From Candidatus Thorarchaeota archaeon (GTDB lineage Archaea; Asgardarchaeota; Heimdallarchaeia; Hodarchaeales; Hodarchaeaceae): a stretch of 5,662 nucleotides of DNA. A program made the translations under genes and the position numbers. How positions within the stretch are numbered: the stretch's first letter is position 1; each line of letters opens with the position of its first letter. The DNA lies in assembly GCA_048882505.1 (NCBI GenBank), contig JBHLRO010000061.1, positions 1-5,662 of the forward strand, given 5' to 3'. Below the pieces are notes generated by a model, which was given only the letters and a program-made list of their open reading frames with translations, ran no database searches and was not told the DNA's origin. Below are positions 1-5,662 of this stretch, one piece after another.

Positions 1-187
1 GTCACAGAAGTAGTTCCTCATTAAAGAGGATTGAAATATAGAGGCAAAATATAGGGAAATCAAACTTGCTCTAAGGGTCACAGAAGTAGTTCCTCATTAA
101 AGAGGATTGAAATGTTGGATACATTGCTTTCTTTTCGGGATCGGCTTCTCGTCACAGAAGACGTTCCTCAGAATAGACGATTGAACT
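1..187 (+). CRISPR. CRISPR array 1 (trailer end): 37-bp repeat GTCACAGAAGTAGTTCCTCATTAAAGAGGATTGAAAT; repeats 1-37, 77-113, degenerate terminal repeat 151-187; spacers 38-76 (39 bp) and 114-150 (37 bp)
   Basis: Two identical 37-mers plus a third with 7 mismatches (T11A, A12C, T21G, T22A, A24T, G28C, A36C), separated by unique 37-39 bp spacers. Internal stem TCCTC/GAGGA with 6-nt loop and 3' ATTGAAAT end are typical of Cas6-processed class 1 repeats. Orientation is inferred from the ATTGAAAT end and the degenerate repeat on the right. The window starts exactly on a repeat, so the array may continue upstream. Confidence 0.93.
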
Positions 188-192
188 AATAA

Positions 193-238
193 TTCAACTA
201 TATGAGGGTTTTCACACCTTGAAAAAGATGAGGTTGAA
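193..238 (+). terminator. Possible trailer hairpin downstream of array 1
   Basis: Nested inverted repeats TTCAAC (193-198)/GTTGAA (233-238) and TTTTCA (209-214)/TGAAAA (220-225). No T-tract follows, so terminator function is a guess. Confidence 0.2.
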
Positions 239-300
239 GACGGGTGTCTCTGGTTAATTATTCAAACTGGATAAGTCAGTTGGAATCCATTCGAGTAATT

Positions 301-314
301 CGATACTTTAATAA
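301..314 (+). promoter_or_regulatory. Archaeal-type BRE/TATA promoter for vapBC
   Basis: CGATAC followed by TTTAATAA (307-314), 33 nt upstream of the vapB ATG at 348. Confidence 0.5.
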
Positions 315-319
315 ACCTA

Positions 320-333
320 TGTATACCTATACA
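320..333. promoter_or_regulatory. Palindromic operator candidate (VapB/VapBC autorepression)
   Basis: Perfect inverted repeat TGTATA-CC-TATACA between the TATA box and the start codon. Type II TA operons are generally autorepressed at such sites. Confidence 0.45.
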
Positions 334-347
334 CATATGGATATAAA

Positions 348-569
348 ATGGCACGTAATATTTCACTTAGTGAGGAAGCGTATGAAAAATTAAGCCAAAT
401 CAAACGGAACCATGAAAGTTTTAGCGATGTAATTCTTCGGTTACTCTCTCAAAAAAAGTCTTTGAGAGAGGTCGCAGGAAAGAACATACTCCCTGTGTCT
501 TTTTCCCTGAATACAGTCAAAGATCTTGGTTCTCAAACATTGAAGCGGTTGGAGCATGAAAGTCCTTGA
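348..569 (+). CDS. vapB: Archaeal VapB-type antitoxin (DUF217-like, 73 aa)
   Basis: N-terminus MARNISLSEEAYEKLSQIKRNHESFSDVILRLL matches the recognisable family pattern (xIxisdEaYerLkxxKxxxESFSdvIxRLl). It overlaps the downstream PIN gene by 14 bp. Confidence 0.88.
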   Translation: MARNISLSEEAYEKLSQIKRNHESFSDVILRLLSQKKSLREVAGKNILPVSFSLNTVKDLGSQTLKRLEHESP

Positions 570-963
570 TACCTCTGTTTTGATCGATATTGATCATAAT
601 ACTTATCCTTCTAGTCTTAATATCTTAAATCAAGAAGAAAGATTATTGGTTAGCAGTGTCTCCGTCTTTGAATTCTGGTGGGGGATCTGTAATCATTATC
701 AAGGTACTCTCCTCGCCCCTGAAGAGAAAGTATTAAGTTTCTATGAATTTTTTTCGGCCTTCGATGTCGTCCCTGTTACTTTTGAAATTTCCAAACTAGC
801 AGCCTCTTTTAGTGTTCAGTTAAAGTATGAGGGTCATCCAATTGACCTTCATGATTATTACATTGCTGCTACAGCCAAACTTTTCAATTCCCCTCTTGTG
901 ACCAAAAACATTCAGCATTTTAGTCGTCTAAATCAAATCAATGTCCTCGAGTGGCCACTCTAA
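556..963 (+). CDS. vapC: VapC PIN-domain ribonuclease toxin (135 aa)
   Basis: PIN motifs: VLDTSVLID (D5), VSVFE (E39), HDYYIAATA (D100), LVTKNIQHF (T116-x-N118, HF). Size is typical. GGAG precedes the ATG, which lies inside vapB. Confidence 0.92.
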   Translation: MKVLDTSVLIDIDHNTYPSSLNILNQEERLLVSSVSVFEFWWGICNHYQGTLLAPEEKVLSFYEFFSAFDVVPVTFEISKLAASFSVQLKYEGHPIDLHDYYIAATAKLFNSPLVTKNIQHFSRLNQINVLEWPL

Positions 964-977
964 GGCCTAATAAGAGA

Positions 978-985
978 TTTTTTTT
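978..985 (+). terminator. Oligo-T archaeal terminator candidate after vapC
   Basis: T8 run starting 15 nt after the vapC stop codon. Confidence 0.5.
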
Positions 986-1036
986 AATAGCCAAAGTGGT
1001 TTGAGCCTTGTCTTTGTTTTCCCCAAATAGTGAACC

Positions 1037-1044
1037 TATTAATT
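1037..1044 (+). promoter_or_regulatory. Possible TATA box for the mini-array
   Basis: TATTAATT ends 19 nt before the first repeat (1064) and lies downstream of the vapC T-tract. No convincing BRE, so weak. Confidence 0.25.
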
Positions 1045-1063
1045 CCTTGTCAATGTCAATTCT

Positions 1064-1251
1064 GTCCCAGAAGTAGTCCCTCAGTAAAGAGCATTGAAAT
1101 TGGAGAAAGAGAAGGAATGAGAGGGAAAGGCTCTATTGTCACAGAAGTAGTTCCCCATTCGAGAGGATTGAAATTTGCGAAAGGCGGCCTCCACCTGTTC
1201 CCGCACCTTTTTGGGTCATAGAAGTAGTTCCTCATTCGAGAGGATCCAAAT
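1064..1251 (+). CRISPR. CRISPR mini-array 2: degenerate repeats 1064-1100, 1138-1174, 1215-1251; spacers 1101-1137 (37 bp) and 1175-1214 (40 bp)
   Basis: Three 37-mers with 4, 3 and 5 mismatches to the array-1 repeat (A: A4C, T15C, T21G, G29C; B: T18C, A23C, A24G; C: C5T, A23C, A24G, T32C, G33C), normal spacer lengths, same strand as array 1. Confidence 0.9.
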
Positions 1252-1264
1252 ATCGAGGAAAAGA

Positions 1265-2725
1265 TCAGGAAGAGGATGAGGGAAGATTGTTGATATCGAC
1301 GAGAACAGGAAGCCTTGTGGCCACACCAGTGACATAGGCGGTGCCTGTAGGGATAAATGGGAGGAGTTTGGTCTCAGCGGTATCAATCAGATCAGAAGAC
1401 GGAAGAAGAGCTTCTACGTCGGTTTGGTTGTTATGTCGGAGGATAATCTTGGTGTTACACTGACCGATGGTGATCGGGTCGAGATTGCGGGTCATTTGGG
1501 TGACAATACCGAGACCTACACCAAACTTTCTCCCTTCACGGGCGACTTGTTGAATCATAGTGCCAGAATAAGAGGAGAAGTTCCGAGGCATAAATCGGTG
1601 CGCCTCTTCAATGAGGATAAAGACTGGGAGATGGAGTTGATTCTGGCGTCGGAAGATAAAGAGTTGACGAATCAGGTGGCCTGCAACGGTCCGACGAACA
1701 CGTTCGCGCATAGGAATGGAGAGATCTACTATGATAACCCTGCCAGGGTGGACCAGGGAGAGTAAGTCTATCTCGGCCCCAAAAATGCCGAGTTCTTGAA
1801 GGGTTAACAGGCGTCTTACGGCAGCGACAATGGAGTTGGTATGGAATTTCCAATGACGTCCTGTAGTCTGGATATTTTGCGTGAACATGTCGATAGTAAA
1901 ATCAGAGCCGTGCTCAAGATAAGCATCTCGATAGGCCAAGTGGATAAGATCTTCGGCAGCCCCCTTGATTCCAGCAATTTCATTGATTTGCTCAGGACTC
2001 AAGGCCGAGAACTGAATGGAAAACGGGATGCTTTGAGAAGGTTGAGAGGTAGTGGTTTGTGGACTTACGGTAATGATGTCAGTTTGCGACCTAGACTCTA
2101 ATTGAGGATTAGCCAAGGACAGAGATCGTTGAAAGAGGGAGTGATATTCGCCGTGTGTGTCTATGACAACTACGGGGAGACCTTTCTGGAGGATCCCGGT
2201 GACTACGATGGCGGCCGCGTGGGTTTTTCCTGAACCTGTACTGCCTACAACAAGTAGGTGTTCCTCCATCAAGGCACGCATATCCACGCTAAGTGGGAGT
2301 GAGGTGCCGTGTAGAACACCGATGGTTAATGAGGCGTTAGATGAGTCAAAGACATAGGATAAGGTGGACTGTGAGATCGGATAAACACTCTCACCTGGAT
2401 CAGGTGGAATCTCAGGAGGATTTGAAAGGGTATTTTTGACAACGCTGAGGATTTTTACTCGGGCATGCCGATAATTTTTGGTCTCAGTCATGTACCGATC
2501 CGCAACTTGTACACCGTCACTTAGAAGGGATTGAACAAAATTTAGATTCTCATAATAGATGTTCTGGGCCTGAATCTCTGTGATTTTACCAACAAAAACA
2601 AGGGTACCACTGGGAATTTCCACAAAGGTACCAACAGATGTTTCGACCTCGGCATCGAGCATGAAATGGAAGCCAAGGTGGTTAGGTGGGCGAGGTTTTG
2701 TGATAACGATCCCTAAACGCTGCAT
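1265..2725 (-). CDS. herA: HerA-family (HerA/FtsK-type, DUF87-like) ATPase/DNA translocase, 486 aa
   Basis: N-terminal HAS-barrel-like region (VGTFVEI...FVGKITEI), Walker A GSTGSGKT (161-168), VVVIDTHGEY, Walker B FILIEEAHRF (E373/E374), REGRKFGVGLGIVTQ (396-410), QCNTKIILR. Strong SD GGAGGAGG and a TAATG overlap with the upstream gene. Confidence 0.93.
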   Translation of the reverse strand: MQRLGIVITKPRPPNHLGFHFMLDAEVETSVGTFVEIPSGTLVFVGKITEIQAQNIYYENLNFVQSLLSDGVQVADRYMTETKNYRHARVKILSVVKNTLSNPPEIPPDPGESVYPISQSTLSYVFDSSNASLTIGVLHGTSLPLSVDMRALMEEHLLVVGSTGSGKTHAAAIVVTGILQKGLPVVVIDTHGEYHSLFQRSLSLANPQLESRSQTDIITVSPQTTTSQPSQSIPFSIQFSALSPEQINEIAGIKGAAEDLIHLAYRDAYLEHGSDFTIDMFTQNIQTTGRHWKFHTNSIVAAVRRLLTLQELGIFGAEIDLLSLVHPGRVIIVDLSIPMRERVRRTVAGHLIRQLFIFRRQNQLHLPVFILIEEAHRFMPRNFSSYSGTMIQQVAREGRKFGVGLGIVTQMTRNLDPITIGQCNTKIILRHNNQTDVEALLPSSDLIDTAETKLLPFIPTGTAYVTGVATRLPVLVDINNLPSSSS

Positions 2726-4221
2726 TATTCCTCCTCCAGATATTTACGCTGAAGATCTACCTCAAAATTCTCCTGGGCTTTGGCGAGCATGTGATTGATG
2801 CCGTAATGGATAGCGTTCGTGATTTCATCAGAGATCGTTCCTAATTTCTCCTGCGCAAAAACGTCTGCCTGATTGGTGACGCTGGGACCAGCCTCTCTGG
2901 GCTTCTGGGGGTGGAGCGTAAAGACAGGACGGAGATAGCGAAGGATTTGCTCGCGCTCAATAAGAGGGTTGTTAACAGAGTAGAATTCGATTTTTGCTAC
3001 ATCCTGCTTCTGACGGGTGTAGAATTCGTAAACTTGGGATAATTTAGGTTTCGACTTTTCTTTTACACGTTCGATGAGACACGTGACATCTAGGTCCGCC
3101 ATGATCTGTTTGAAGAAATTCAGATCATCCATCTGGCCGATATCTGCTTTTAGGAGGTTTTTAGATAATTTAAAGAACACATCATCACGTGGATGAACGG
3201 TCACCCCTACCAACAAGATGCCTTCCTTTCTAACTTTCCCAATTAACTCATAAAAAGCTTTCGTGGTTTGTTTTTGGAGGTTAGATAAGGTTTTCCCACG
3301 GACGATGAATCCATGAGGGGATAAGGCCCCTTTTTTGAAAATAATGGGCACCGCTTGGTTCGTTTTCCTTTCTTCAAACCATTCGGAGTTCAATAGATCA
3401 AGAATAGTTTGAATATGAAGTTGTTCACTTAAGAATCTAGATGCGATCGATCGGCCAGCCTGCAGGAGCTCTGGGAAATCATGATACATATCATAAAATG
3501 GGTCGACTCGTTGAAAAGGCTCTGTTCGGACGAATCGCTCAATTTGGGGCCGTGTTATAGCATAGGTCTCTCGAATATCGCGTTTATTCTTCTGAAAGAC
3601 CATGGCCACTCCAGATGCTGCCAGAAATGAAATGGTCATCAATGCGAAATCATAGATTCTGAGGATGTCAAGCTTATAGGTGGCGGCCGATCCCATTAGA
3701 ATAAAATCCTCCAATGGATCGGGTAAGTGAACGAGTGGCTGAACGAGTCTGTCCCCCAAGATGGAATCAACTCGATATTGACGAAGAAGGCTTAAATCAA
3801 TGTCTGCCACCTTTAAGGTTTTGACCTTGTCGCCGAGCGCCTCAGGAAATCGAAATACTCGCTCCATTTTCGTAAAGATCTGTTCCACCTTTGTTTGGAC
3901 TAGGTTAGGTTCACTGGTGGTGAGAGCGCTTTTCTTATTCAAGACTCTTTGCAAAATTGACGGTTGGATAAGGGACGGTGTGTTGAGGGGCGCAGGTTCC
4001 TCCACCACACTTAGGTTGAACGCGTATTTGTTATCCCCTTGGTATTGCAATACATCCAAGGTTAAAAGGTCGTTTACATATGTGCGAATCATACGGTCAG
4101 ATAGGTTGAGCTCGTTGACCAGATTTTTTGGATTGATAAATCCCTGTTCCAATGATAATCGATAACAAAGGTTAACGAGGACCTCTAACCTCGCCTCGTA
4201 CGTAGCACCTCGACGACCCAT
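2725..4221 (-). CDS. N-terminal winged-HTH fused to a divergent NurA-like (RNase H-fold) domain, predicted catalytically inactive, 498 aa
   Basis: Residues ~1-70 look like a wHTH (NPKNLVNELNLSDRMIRTYVNDLLTLDVLQYQGDNKY). The C-terminal part shows NurA motifs in the expected order: FILMGS (for avDGS), SEQLH, IIFKKGALSP (for llDGsl), GILLVGV, FYTRQKQDVAKIEF (for fYlk..vrvE), AGPSVTNQADVFA (for GYPxxLxxAHxxA). It is coupled to herA, the canonical NurA partner. The CDS itself is near certain; the domain call is less so. Confidence 0.75.
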   Translation of the reverse strand: MGRRGATYEARLEVLVNLCYRLSLEQGFINPKNLVNELNLSDRMIRTYVNDLLTLDVLQYQGDNKYAFNLSVVEEPAPLNTPSLIQPSILQRVLNKKSALTTSEPNLVQTKVEQIFTKMERVFRFPEALGDKVKTLKVADIDLSLLRQYRVDSILGDRLVQPLVHLPDPLEDFILMGSAATYKLDILRIYDFALMTISFLAASGVAMVFQKNKRDIRETYAITRPQIERFVRTEPFQRVDPFYDMYHDFPELLQAGRSIASRFLSEQLHIQTILDLLNSEWFEERKTNQAVPIIFKKGALSPHGFIVRGKTLSNLQKQTTKAFYELIGKVRKEGILLVGVTVHPRDDVFFKLSKNLLKADIGQMDDLNFFKQIMADLDVTCLIERVKEKSKPKLSQVYEFYTRQKQDVAKIEFYSVNNPLIEREQILRYLRPVFTLHPQKPREAGPSVTNQADVFAQEKLGTISDEITNAIHYGINHMLAKAQENFEVDLQRKYLEEE

Positions 4222-4260
4222 TAATATACCCCAAATCTGGCAATATATTTCCTAGATTAC

Positions 4261-4274
4261 TATAAATACTTTCG
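4261..4274 (-). promoter_or_regulatory. Archaeal BRE-TATA promoter for the NurA-like/herA operon
   Basis: Minus strand reads CGAAAGTA-TTTATA, 40 nt upstream of the ATG at 4221, with an SD-like GGGGT just before the start. Confidence 0.6.
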
Positions 4275-4334
4275 TTTTTATCTTTATGAACCACCCTTTC
4301 GAATTGCTATTTTTTTCGAGAAACATGTCATAAA

Positions 4335-4401
4335 CTAGACCAAGTTCCGTTTTATTGCCTCATCCATTCGAGGGAATTTGAAATGGAGCTGTTTGGTCTA
4401 G
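4335..4401. other. Long imperfect hairpin containing a CRISPR-repeat-like 3' half
   Basis: CTAGACCAA (4335-4343)/TTGGTCTAG (4393-4401) arms, further pairing AGTTCCGTTTT/GAAATGGAGCT with G-U pairs, and an apical CCTC/GAGG stem. 4364-4384 matches repeat B positions 18-37 at 18 of 20 with one gap. Confidence 0.4.
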
Positions 4402-4584
4402 ATTGAAGTCCAATTTTAGTTAGCGATGAGAGGTTTCAACACCACAGACATGCCTTCCCTTTGACGAGAATTAGAGAATCGAATAATCTTATTCATTTCT
4501 TCATTATCGGTGAGTTTTAGAAGGCCTTTCATCATACAAAAGATTCAAGCATCAATTCATGACACGGGAAGGATGGCTTGACGG

Positions 4585-4670
4585 CCCCTATGAGGGGTAA
4601 TTCATCTTATGGGAAGATGATTAGCAAGGATCGTCTGTTTTCCCTTTATTTTATTATTTTAATTTGATTT
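4585..4670 (+). other. Tandem hairpins followed by a T-rich tract (possible ncRNA 3' end or terminator)
   Basis: CCCCT-ATG-AGGGG (4585-4597) and TCATCTT-ATGGG-AAGATGA (4602-4620), then a T-rich run at about 4637-4670. Confidence 0.3.
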
Positions 4671-4864
4671 AGATGGTTTACTAGACAAAGATTACAGATT
4701 CGCAAGATTGGATAATTGAGTTTGTGCCGTTTCACCAGATAAAGAGCTACTATATCTCACTCCAATAATAAGTTGGCTTCTCTTTAATATGGTACCAGGA
4801 ATAAACCTTCTAATCGTTGATTTGTCTAGTGATGAGGTCAGCTACTCCTCGATCAATTTCCCTC

Positions 4865-5268
4865 ATGAAGATTCTCATGGTTGATGACAGACGCGATTTT
4901 TTTGGCCAAATTTGGGCCAATAACTTCGAGAGCCTGGAAATCAGTGAGGGAAGCCTTGTCAACCGCCACGATGCTGGGATACTTGGTACCAAGAACCCGC
5001 GCTCAGTTCAGTCCGGCCCCTGGAATCATCCGTAACACGTTAACCGTGACGTTCTGCTGGTGACCATGCGAGAATCGCCAACTTCATTAGCGAGAATGGG
5101 CCTGCAGACACTGATATTGAAATCGCGGAGTTCGTGTTAGAGCTTCTTAGGCTGGACGTAGAGGTAGTAACCAATGATATCTCCTCACCCTTCTTAATCC
5201 AATTTATGGTACGATACTTAGGGATTCCTCCAATGAGATCTCTCCAATTTTCCTTTAACTATCGTTAA
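4865..5268 (+). pseudogene. Possible frameshifted PIN-domain gene (~133 codons, two frameshifts)
   Basis: Removing one base near 4886 joins MKILMVD to TDAIFLAK..., a PIN-like first strand. The startless frame 5050-5268 encodes ...GPADTDIEIAEFVLELLRLDVEVVTNDI..., resembling the PIN C-terminal D and TxD motifs. The total span matches PIN size. The middle Glu is not evident. Confidence 0.35.
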
Positions 5269-5544
5269 TCTAGAACATTCGATCCAAAAGCCTTTTTAAG
5301 CTGTTTTCTAGATCATTCAATAAAATTCTCGAAAAATATTAAGAAAAATGATCAATTAGCGGCTTTGACTTAACAATAGAAAGGCAAATTGCGAAAAGTA
5401 ATATTACTGATTGGACCGTTAGGACTACTTCGACCAAAAACGGTCGGAAATCTGACCAAGGAAAACTAAATAGTGGTGACTGGCGAATTAAACATGGCTG
5501 CCGAAAGTATTGAACAAATTGATCCTCAGATTGGCGTGTTTCTC

Positions 5545-5552
5545 TATATATA
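5545..5552 (+). promoter_or_regulatory. TATA-box candidate for the Fe-S gene
   Basis: TATATATA about 33 nt upstream of the ATG at 5585, with GGGGA just before the start. Confidence 0.35.
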
Positions 5553-5584
5553 TGGGGATATGATTTATTTACCGGGGATAAAAC

Positions 5585-5662
5585 ATGGATATTAACGAGA
5601 TTAAGAATCAATTGCAGGTATGTTTCTCTTGTGGGACGTGTAGCGGATCCTGTCCCATATTC
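5585..5662 (+). CDS. 5' fragment of a 4Fe-4S (ferredoxin-motif) protein, HdrC/GlpC-like Fe-S oxidoreductase start; truncated by the window edge
   Basis: MDINEIKNQLQVCFSCGTCSGSCPIF contains a complete CxxCxxCxxxCP motif. The frame is open to the last base and has an upstream SD-like GGGGA. Not in the supplied ORF track. Confidence 0.82.
   Translation, partial: MDINEIKNQLQVCFSCGTCSGSCPIF

Follow-up and report, generated by a model that had tools for sequence, protein, structure and literature searches.

The window analyzed here comprises positions 1 to 5,662 (5,662 nucleotides [nt]) of contig JBHLRO010000061.1 from assembly GCA_048882505.1, an Asgard archaeal genome labeled Candidatus Thorarchaeota archaeon. 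Its central feature is a gene for a protein, here P0001, in which a domain with the fold of the nuclease NurA follows a predicted winged helix-turn-helix (wHTH), and directly downstream of it lies a herA gene. Two clustered regularly interspaced short palindromic repeat (CRISPR) arrays and a vapB-vapC toxin-antitoxin pair lie on the opposite strand (Table 1). A preliminary description of the window, made from the sequence alone, had read P0001 as a NurA-like protein that lost its catalytic acidic residues while keeping the surrounding motifs, encoded by a full-length open reading frame (ORF) coupled to herA. The ORF is indeed uninterrupted, and its TAA stop codon overlaps the herA ATG by one base (TAATG). 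The residues and motifs on which that reading was built were also found in place (M176, ATG at 3694 to 3696; K297, AAA at 3331 to 3333; SEQLH, residues 265 to 269; GVTV, 339 to 342; AGP, 444 to 446; QAD, 451 to 453). Annotation pipelines at present label proteins of this type as hypothetical protein.

P0001 has the NurA fold

Searches of Pfam, NCBIfam, and PADLOC gave no family match for P0001 except a sub-threshold one to HTH_11. An exhaustive HMMER search for relatives yielded 35 representative clusters (50% identity), and 28 full-length sequences were aligned as the family set. The canonical comparison set consisted of 19 Asgard NurAs, including both canonical NurAs of the genome that encodes P0001. 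The AlphaFold2 model of P0001, built from the 28-sequence alignment, has a predicted local distance difference test (pLDDT) score of 84 and a predicted template modeling (TM) score, pTM, of 0.72. Its best Foldseek match in the PDB is SsoNurA (2ygk_A), onto which VIA-align places 276 residues with a Z of 20.3 and a root mean square deviation (rmsd) of 3.9 Å. Other solved NurAs reach Z 12 to 18 (Tko and Pfu NurA, 16 to 18), and PIWI and EndoV, the next fold class, about 11. In AlphaFold DB, 29 of 30 cluster matches are NurA and one is Piwi, and the structural neighbor in the ESM Atlas is a NurA cluster. Comparison of the family with canonical Asgard NurA by hhalign gave a probability of 99% and an E value of about 2e-18 over 310 to 318 columns. 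P0001 has a NurA-type RNase H-like fold; the motif-based guess at NurA in the preliminary description was right, with Foldseek, VIA-align, AlphaFold DB, and hhalign in agreement.

At the sequence level, this homology is visible only in profile-to-profile comparison. The Pfam NurA model (PF09376) is reached by only 3 of the 28 family members, with a best E value of 6e-4, and PADLOC returned no NurA-named match, even for the canonical NurAs P0040 and P0041. Searches of PDB sequences with the P0001 family, the canonical NurA alignment, or P0040 retrieved no NurA, which ruled out mapping Sso or Pfu residues by sequence; Sso residue numbers were assigned by matching motifs with those in the literature. 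The VIA-align match to 2ygk_A begins at residue 103, downstream of a linker with pLDDT below 50 at residues 76 to 84. In the model, the helical extension at residues ~89 to 150 corresponds to the N-terminal helices of NurA. No longer fused forms of the family were found in the range of 966 to 2755 amino acids (aa), which counts as weak evidence.

A separate observation concerns bacteria. Three cyanobacterial clusters of hypothetical proteins (~660 to 720 aa) in the ESM Atlas are the nearest to P0001 by language-model features (0.88 to 0.90), and one of them also matches by structure (TM 0.59, 351 residues). HMMER did not retrieve these clusters, which may be bacterial wHTH-NurA-like analogs.

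The canonical nuclease active site is lost across the family

The catalytic residues of SsoNurA are D58, E116, and D133, with the conserved residues K202 and Y298 also at the site (PMC3326311). Residue correspondences between these positions and the P0001 family were drawn with hhalign, MAFFT L-INS-i, and a MAFFT profile merge, and all three were concordant. The first catalytic Asp, present in 19/19 canonical sequences, corresponds to A179 in P0001, and no family member is acidic there (0/28, in columns 176 and 179 alike). The catalytic Glu, likewise invariant in the canonical set (19/19), is replaced by H269 (acidic in 0/28 family members, His in 14), and the second catalytic Asp (19/19) by K297 (Asp in 2/28). 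At the active-site Lys (19/19), P0001 has V342, and Lys occurs in none of the 28. The terminal position, which is Asp or His in all 19 canonical NurAs, is D453 in P0001 and acidic in 8/28 members. Finally, the active-site Tyr (Sso Y298) has no aligned partner in P0001, where the preceding columns hold A, P, S, or G. Y293 is without an aligned partner.

The loss of acidic residues is therefore family-wide and not peculiar to the P0001 copy. Around it, the scaffold shared by the family and canonical NurA is kept (G177, G298, D366, K403, K410, E412, P446, and A452), so that the claim of lost catalytic acids within retained motifs holds when the 19 canonical and 28 family sequences are compared column by column. 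One detail of that claim needs correction. The preliminary description had equated MGS in P0001 with the DGS motif of NurA; the position is non-acidic as stated, but the register was off by three, the first Asp corresponding to A179 rather than to M176. G177 aligns with the Gly two residues before the canonical first Asp. The conclusion survives this error because the M176 and A179 columns are both acidic in 0/28 members.

The suggestion that exchange of Asp for Lys at position 297 could favor binding of nucleic acid phosphate over cleavage did not hold up. K297 is unconserved: its column holds 14 residue types in all, with Lys in 5/28, Arg in 2/28, and 12 others, and we dismiss K297 as a selected phosphate-binding replacement on account of this variability. 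Basic character is kept nearby, at position 296 (Arg, His, or Lys in 18/28), R257 (22/28), and R262 (25/28).

Selection and distribution of the family

Ratios of nonsynonymous to synonymous substitution rates (dN/dS), a check to which the preliminary description had pointed, indicate strong purifying selection, at 0.03 to 0.09 for unsaturated orthologous pairs. The tightest constraint falls on the NurA-like core (0.04 to 0.05); the wHTH gives 0.07 to 0.22. In 300 genomes sampled from the Asgard phylum, profile searching recovered ~20 full-length members (E < 1e-90), or ~7% of genomes. The same search returned ~100 weak partial matches, which are canonical NurAs aligned over model positions 260 to 450. 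Family records come from Hodarchaeota, Baldrarchaeota, Jordarchaeia, Freyarchaeota, and Asgardarchaeum, together with one metagenome-assembled genome labeled Thermoproteota. The NurA-like gene is not decaying and probably encodes a selected pseudo-enzyme.

The partner gene is a divergent herA

The protein encoded downstream, P0002, matches Pfam DUF87/HerA at 2.5e-27, with a weak additional match to the HAS-barrel, and aligns over its full length with SsoHerA (4d2i, E value of 2.8e-33). Its Walker A (GSGK), Walker B (IEEAH), and AREGRKFGVGL motifs are kept. Judged by its sequence, P0002 is a divergent HerA paralog, so called because its score falls far below the NCBIfam equivalog cutoffs. A herA gene lies directly downstream of the NurA-like gene in 22/22 related loci with downstream sequence, and in all related loci no gene stands between the two; csm6 is absent there.

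The same genome encodes two canonical NurAs, on contigs C16 (L001) and C1 (L002), each with an intact Asp-Glu-Asp triad and a herA-like gene next to it, and seven DUF87/HerA-type ATPases in total. Because these two intact canonical NurAs come with herA-like genes, repair is independent of P0001. Linkage to mre11 and rad50 is typical of the nurA-herA repair operon of thermophiles. Neither gene is present in the window, none was found among the annotated related loci, and the Rad50 zinc-hook model had no match in the genome, which is 94.6% complete.

Linkage to CRISPR arrays and cas genes

The window contains six CRISPR repeats in two arrays that share a 37-nt repeat; the third repeat of the array at 1 to 187 is degenerate, and the mini-array at 1064 to 1251 ends 13 nt from the herA stop codon. 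The exact 37-nt repeat is found nowhere else in the 4.3-Mb assembly. To place this arrangement in context, we examined 23 distinct related loci, nearly all of them Asgard. In the available flanks of 14 of the 23, cas6, csa1, or a CRISPR array is present. Typically, the wHTH-NurA-like gene is preceded by the CRISPR array and followed by herA and then cas6. In L027, the NurA-like gene, herA, and cas6 form a coupled operon; in L028, the operon consists of the NurA-like gene, herA, and csa1, with csx16 nearby. The operon of family member P0022 runs on into csa1. In L005, the pair is followed by a complete type I-A operon (csa5, cas7, cas3', cas3'' HD, csa3, and cas4), and cas6 follows herA in L005, L007, L027, L045, and L051. 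Arrays of 49 to 78 repeats lie directly upstream in L012, L045, L049, and L051. This linkage of the whole family to CRISPR arrays and cas6 is the strongest clue to its function.

In the genome that encodes P0001, the one cas6 detected lies at the edge of the small contig C60 (L025, C60:1-777) and the one cas1 at the edge of the small contig C55 (L026, C55:319-1218). Assembly breaks at repeats probably scattered the CRISPR-Cas locus of this genome over contigs C55, C60, and C61, a kind of fragmentation to be expected at such loci. The Cas7 (DevR) and RAMP models had no matches in the genome.

A proposed role as a non-degrading partner of HerA

The retained pseudo-nuclease of the preliminary description is the best reading of P0001, because a NurA fold is combined with the loss of the catalytic set, purifying selection, and a constant downstream herA. 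We infer that P0001 lacks nuclease activity. In the explanation that we favor, P0001 probably caps the HerA ring as NurA does, no longer degrading the threaded strand, and the NurA-like/herA pair is likely to serve Asgard CRISPR loci as an accessory module. As a cap, the NurA-like protein would stimulate and gate the motor and thread nucleic acid into HerA without degrading it. DNA could be held or selected by the wHTH together with conserved Arg residues of helix alpha-A. The outcome would be an ATP-driven translocase or unwinder rather than a resection nuclease.

There is an engineered precedent for such a complex. SsoHerA together with NurA D58A remains an active ATPase that can unwind overhang and splayed substrates and branch-migrate Holliday junctions (PMC3326311). 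P0001 and its partner would be the natural counterpart of this helicase-only complex. Like P0001, the D58A protein lacks the beta-1 Asp, and it still binds and stimulates HerA, which makes the complex a helicase or branch-migration motor (Blackwood 2012, PMC3326311); this is the behavior that we propose for P0001. It differs in being a laboratory point mutant. In the natural P0001 family, five active-site positions are gone, and new conserved residues and a predicted wHTH have been added.

The pair would then serve a step of the CRISPR process. It could work with Csa1/Cas4 in spacer uptake or array repair, expose target DNA for interference by unwinding, or handle the array or precursor CRISPR RNA (pre-crRNA) for Cas6.

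Several points weigh against this proposal. For nine of the 23 loci, neither a cas gene nor an array appears in the flanking sequence available. Although the flanks are short in several of these cases, L013 is bordered on each side by 10 kb of housekeeping genes. Four members (P0017, P0019, P0024, and P0026) have Glu at position 178, adjoining the lost beta-1 Asp, and two (P0012 and P0022) have Asp at position 297; going by their sequences, these could possibly be relics or partial reversions of the metal site. HerA binding, dimerization, and DNA binding are themselves properties that we infer for P0001. Lastly, in the secondary structure (DSSP) string of the model, two family-specific residues, H303 and D346, fall in loops right after beta-4 and beta-5, a position from which they might build a new metal or catalytic site.

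Family-specific residues and a possible rebuilt site

Four residues are near-invariant in the family, namely H303 in the PHGF loop (28/28), D346 in the PRD loop (26/28), E399 (27/28), and E388 (25/28). Canonical NurA has no conserved equivalent of any of them, and its residue in the D346 column is L, S, or A. The family also has a conserved PFYE..DFPELL insert before helix alpha-A. Helix geometry places this insert about five turns (~18 residues) away from where the catalytic residue of that helix used to be, and for this reason it is more likely an interaction surface.

One alternative is that P0001 is still a nuclease, with a site that has migrated to H303, D346, E388, and E399, perhaps with E266 or D453. 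Degradation of nucleic acid by the HerA complex would in that case continue, perhaps on a different substrate (RNA or a flap, for example). The near-invariance of these residues would fit such a site, as would the predicted placement of H303 and D346, since in the RNase H fold the C-terminal ends of these strands line the active-site edge of the sheet. The low dN/dS of the NurA-like domain also implies that something there is tightly constrained. The preliminary description had itself listed alternative acidic residues that might rebuild a metal site. Most of them are unconserved (D140 and D142 vary; E266, one helical turn before H269, is acidic in just 16/28; D347 is acidic in 7/28 and D453 in 8/28), and of that list only D346 stands out.

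Conserved polar residues are, however, equally expected at a new surface for binding protein or nucleic acid, and the joint loss of five separate active-site positions is the usual pattern of a pseudoenzyme. To our knowledge, no working RNase H-fold nuclease lacks the beta-1 Asp. In SsoNurA, moreover, D58A alone abolishes nuclease activity (PMC3326311), and the equivalent Asp is absent in 28/28 family members. On balance, we consider a rebuilt nuclease unlikely.

The same residues enter into a more far-reaching version of the proposed HerA-capping role. Array, wHTH-dead-NurA, HerA, and Cas6 might together constitute an unrecognized ATP-driven CRISPR step in Asgard archaea, in which the wHTH would dock HerA on leader or repeat DNA or on pre-crRNA and the complex would feed or clear substrate for Cas6 or Csa1/Cas4, with H303, D346, and E399 forming a new nucleic acid or ligand pocket in place of the metal site. 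We offer this version as speculation and think it quite unlikely to be correct in full.

The N-terminal domain and a possible regulatory role

The N terminus of P0001 shows, in the AlphaFold2 model, three helices and a beta-hairpin in the pattern of a winged helix. P0001 itself matches Pfam HTH_11 only at an E value of 0.22 (residues 21 to 52). HTH_11 is matched by 15 of the 28 family members (best E value of 1.4e-4, all below the curated cutoffs), and others match further wHTH families. The structural neighbors of residues 5 to 113 in the ESM Atlas are HTH regulators, with low TM-scores, and R11, R43, R46, and Y48 are conserved in the family. These features fit a predicted wHTH fused to the NurA-like domain and conserved across the family.

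Such a domain raises the question as to whether P0001 acts mainly in transcriptional regulation or sensing. In that case, the wHTH would bind a CRISPR leader or cas promoter, the dead NurA domain would serve in oligomerization and in sensing a ligand or nucleic acid, and HerA, instead of being a motor loaded by P0001, would be the regulated effector or would remodel the repressor. Conservation of the wHTH is consistent with this, as is the frequent position of the NurA-like gene directly beside a CRISPR array. The HTH of several members weakly resembles those of WYL, CasR, and Csa3 (E values of 1e-3 to 0.04), and the related type I-A locus also encodes Csa3. Yet all of these HTH matches are below curated thresholds, and no operator or binding site was identified. 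The strict operon coupling with herA in 22/22 loci points instead to a stoichiometric complex, as does retention of the entire NurA scaffold, down to the C-terminal segment through which SsoNurA binds HerA (PMC3326311). A primarily regulatory function is, in our judgment, quite unlikely.

Although the loss of all catalytic residues and the lack of a Pfam match might also suggest a decaying NurA pseudogene that is merely still open, full-length orthologs in ~20/300 Asgard genomes and 35 clusters at 50% identity, dN/dS of 0.03 to 0.09, new invariant residues, and conserved synteny with herA leave that explanation next to no chance.

Comparison with known NurA-HerA systems

NurA and HerA form the minimal DNA end-resection machine of archaea. 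P0001 shares the fold of the canonical proteins (SsoNurA, 2YGK; PfuNurA, 3TAL; Tko HerA-NurA, 9X1L) at Z 16 to 20, and the pair shares the adjacent, coupled herA order, the same scaffold residues, and intact HerA motifs. In contrast to canonical NurA, P0001 lacks the Asp-Glu-Asp triad, the Lys, and the Tyr, and it has the predicted wHTH and the PFYE..DFPELL insert. The pair also differs from canonical NurA-HerA in standing without mre11/rad50, beside CRISPR arrays and cas6, and in being missed by Pfam NurA.

CRISPR-associated nurA-herA pairs have been described in Pyrobaculum and other Thermoproteales, in the order nurA-csm6-herA and with unknown function, and in Pyrobaculum aerophilum cas6 follows herA (PAE0122-PAE0131) (Bernick 2012, PMC3396285). 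In later surveys, the Thermoproteales pairs linked to CRISPR are cataloged as "Cas NurA / Cas HerA" (Vestergaard 2014, PMC3973734), the NurA/HerA pair is included in co-evolved type III clusters 57/58 (Shah 2019, PMC6546367), and NurA/HerA are listed as auxiliary genes (Altae-Tran 2023, PMC10910872). A role in adaptation has been proposed for CRISPR-associated nurA-herA pairs. The Thermoproteales Cas-NurA pairs are like the pair described here in that they are a third paralog beside the repair copies and lie next to arrays. The P. aerophilum position of cas6 after herA is the same as in the five Asgard loci with that order.

There are also differences. Thermoproteales Cas-NurAs match Pfam NurA (E values of 1e-7 to 1e-16) and have csm6 between the genes, whereas the P0001 pair shows neither and carries the predicted fused wHTH. 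Going by published descriptions, the P0001 family may therefore be distinct from the crenarchaeal Cas-NurAs (PAE0122, Tagg_0814, and VMUT_1471). Bernick 2012 (PMC3396285) makes no mention of the active site, catalytic residues, or a helix-turn-helix, and neither catalytic residues nor a wHTH are discussed in the passages of PMC3973734, PMC6546367, and PMC10910872 that name NurA or HerA. Our literature searches found no published description of an inactive or wHTH-fused NurA. What is new here is a predicted dead, wHTH-fused NurA linked to CRISPR in Asgard archaea; CRISPR-associated nurA-herA pairs as such were already known.

A 2026 review that covers annotated NurAs only states that Asgard NurAs, which are uncharacterized, retain canonical catalytic residues (PMC13748450). 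For one widespread Asgard paralog, the P0001 family contradicts this statement. The family provides a conserved, strongly selected NurA that is unable to use the classic mechanism, has a predicted DNA-binding domain of its own, and travels with CRISPR arrays and cas6, and with its HerA it is a concrete candidate for the role of CRISPR-associated HerA pairs, a question open since 2012.

A looser parallel exists in the short prokaryotic Argonautes, which have lost the DEDX tetrad, reuse the scaffold for nucleic acid binding, and are paired with an effector in a defense locus. The inactive PIWI of these proteins (SPARTA, SPARSA, and AfAgo) belongs to a related RNase H-fold clade, with a Z of ~11 to the P0001 model. 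P0001 is of another family, has no guide-binding MID domain, and is partnered by the HerA ATPase. By analogy only, it may be a further case in which an RNase H-fold nuclease was turned into a non-cutting handler of nucleic acid in defense loci.

Other features of the window and of related loci

The coordinates of all features are collected in Table 1. The vapBC genes are context and stand outside the NurA-like/herA pair. Rfam and tRNA scans of the window gave no matches. In the 1.4 kb upstream of the NurA-like gene (4222 to 5662), no ORF had a family match, and neither tblastn nor blastn detected a cas6 remnant. An A/T-rich, TATA-like stretch at ~4242 to 4250, ~21 to 29 nt before the ATG of the NurA-like gene, would suit a leaderless transcript. 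In the closest relatives (L004 and L009), a divergent cas6 lies ~200 bp upstream of the NurA-like gene.

Table 1. Features of the 5,662-nt window, with positions counted from its first nucleotide.
Feature	Position	Strand	Basis or remark
NurA-like gene (P0001, wHTH and NurA-like, 498 aa)	2725-4221	minus	ORF and translation; AlphaFold2 model; NurA fold; family of ~35 representatives
Predicted wHTH, P0001 residues 1-71 (N-terminal)	4009-4221	minus	Model: three helices, then beta hairpin; HTH_11 matches of relatives
Low-confidence linker (~72-88) and helical N-terminal extension (~89-150) of P0001	3772-4008	minus	pLDDT; start of VIA-align match
NurA-like RNase H-fold core, P0001 residues 151-470	2812-3771	minus	Z 20.3; hhalign 99%; dN/dS 0.04-0.05
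Beta-1 site M176-G177-S178-A179	3685-3696	minus	A179 in place of first catalytic Asp (Sso D58)
Helix alpha-A segment S265-H269	3415-3429	minus	H269 in place of catalytic Glu (Sso E116)
Beta-4 motif IFKKGAL	3322-3342	minus	K297 in place of second catalytic Asp (Sso D133); G298 invariant
Family-specific PHGF loop with invariant H303	3307-3318	minus	Family alignment
Beta-5 GVTV and PRDD loop	3181-3207	minus	V342 replaces active-site Lys (Sso K202); D346 family-specific acid
C-terminal AGP...QAD segment	2863-2892	minus	P446 and A452 kept; D453 at canonical Asp/His position; active-site Tyr absent
herA gene (P0002, 486 aa)	1265-2725	minus	Pfam DUF87/HerA 2.5e-27; SsoHerA alignment
Degenerate three-repeat CRISPR mini-array	1064-1251	plus	Repeat family D1; copies at 1064, 1138, and 1215
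vapB-vapC toxin-antitoxin pair	348-963	plus	Pfam VAPB_antitox 1.3e-13, PIN 8.2e-14; between both arrays
CRISPR array, three 37-nt repeats ending ATTGAAAT	1-187	plus	Runs off contig start

Two related loci have further neighbors. In L018 (Asgardarchaeum abyssi), a coiled-coil ORF between herA and cas6 contains five tandem 42-nt repeats (13615 to 13866). In L004 (6086 to 8958), genes for ThiF (E1-like), a ubiquitin-like protein (Rad60-SLD, a faint match), and UQ_con (E2) lie beside the cluster of cas6, NurA-like gene, and herA; by their sequence matches, they make up a putative ubiquitin-type conjugation cassette adjoining the CRISPR accessory module.

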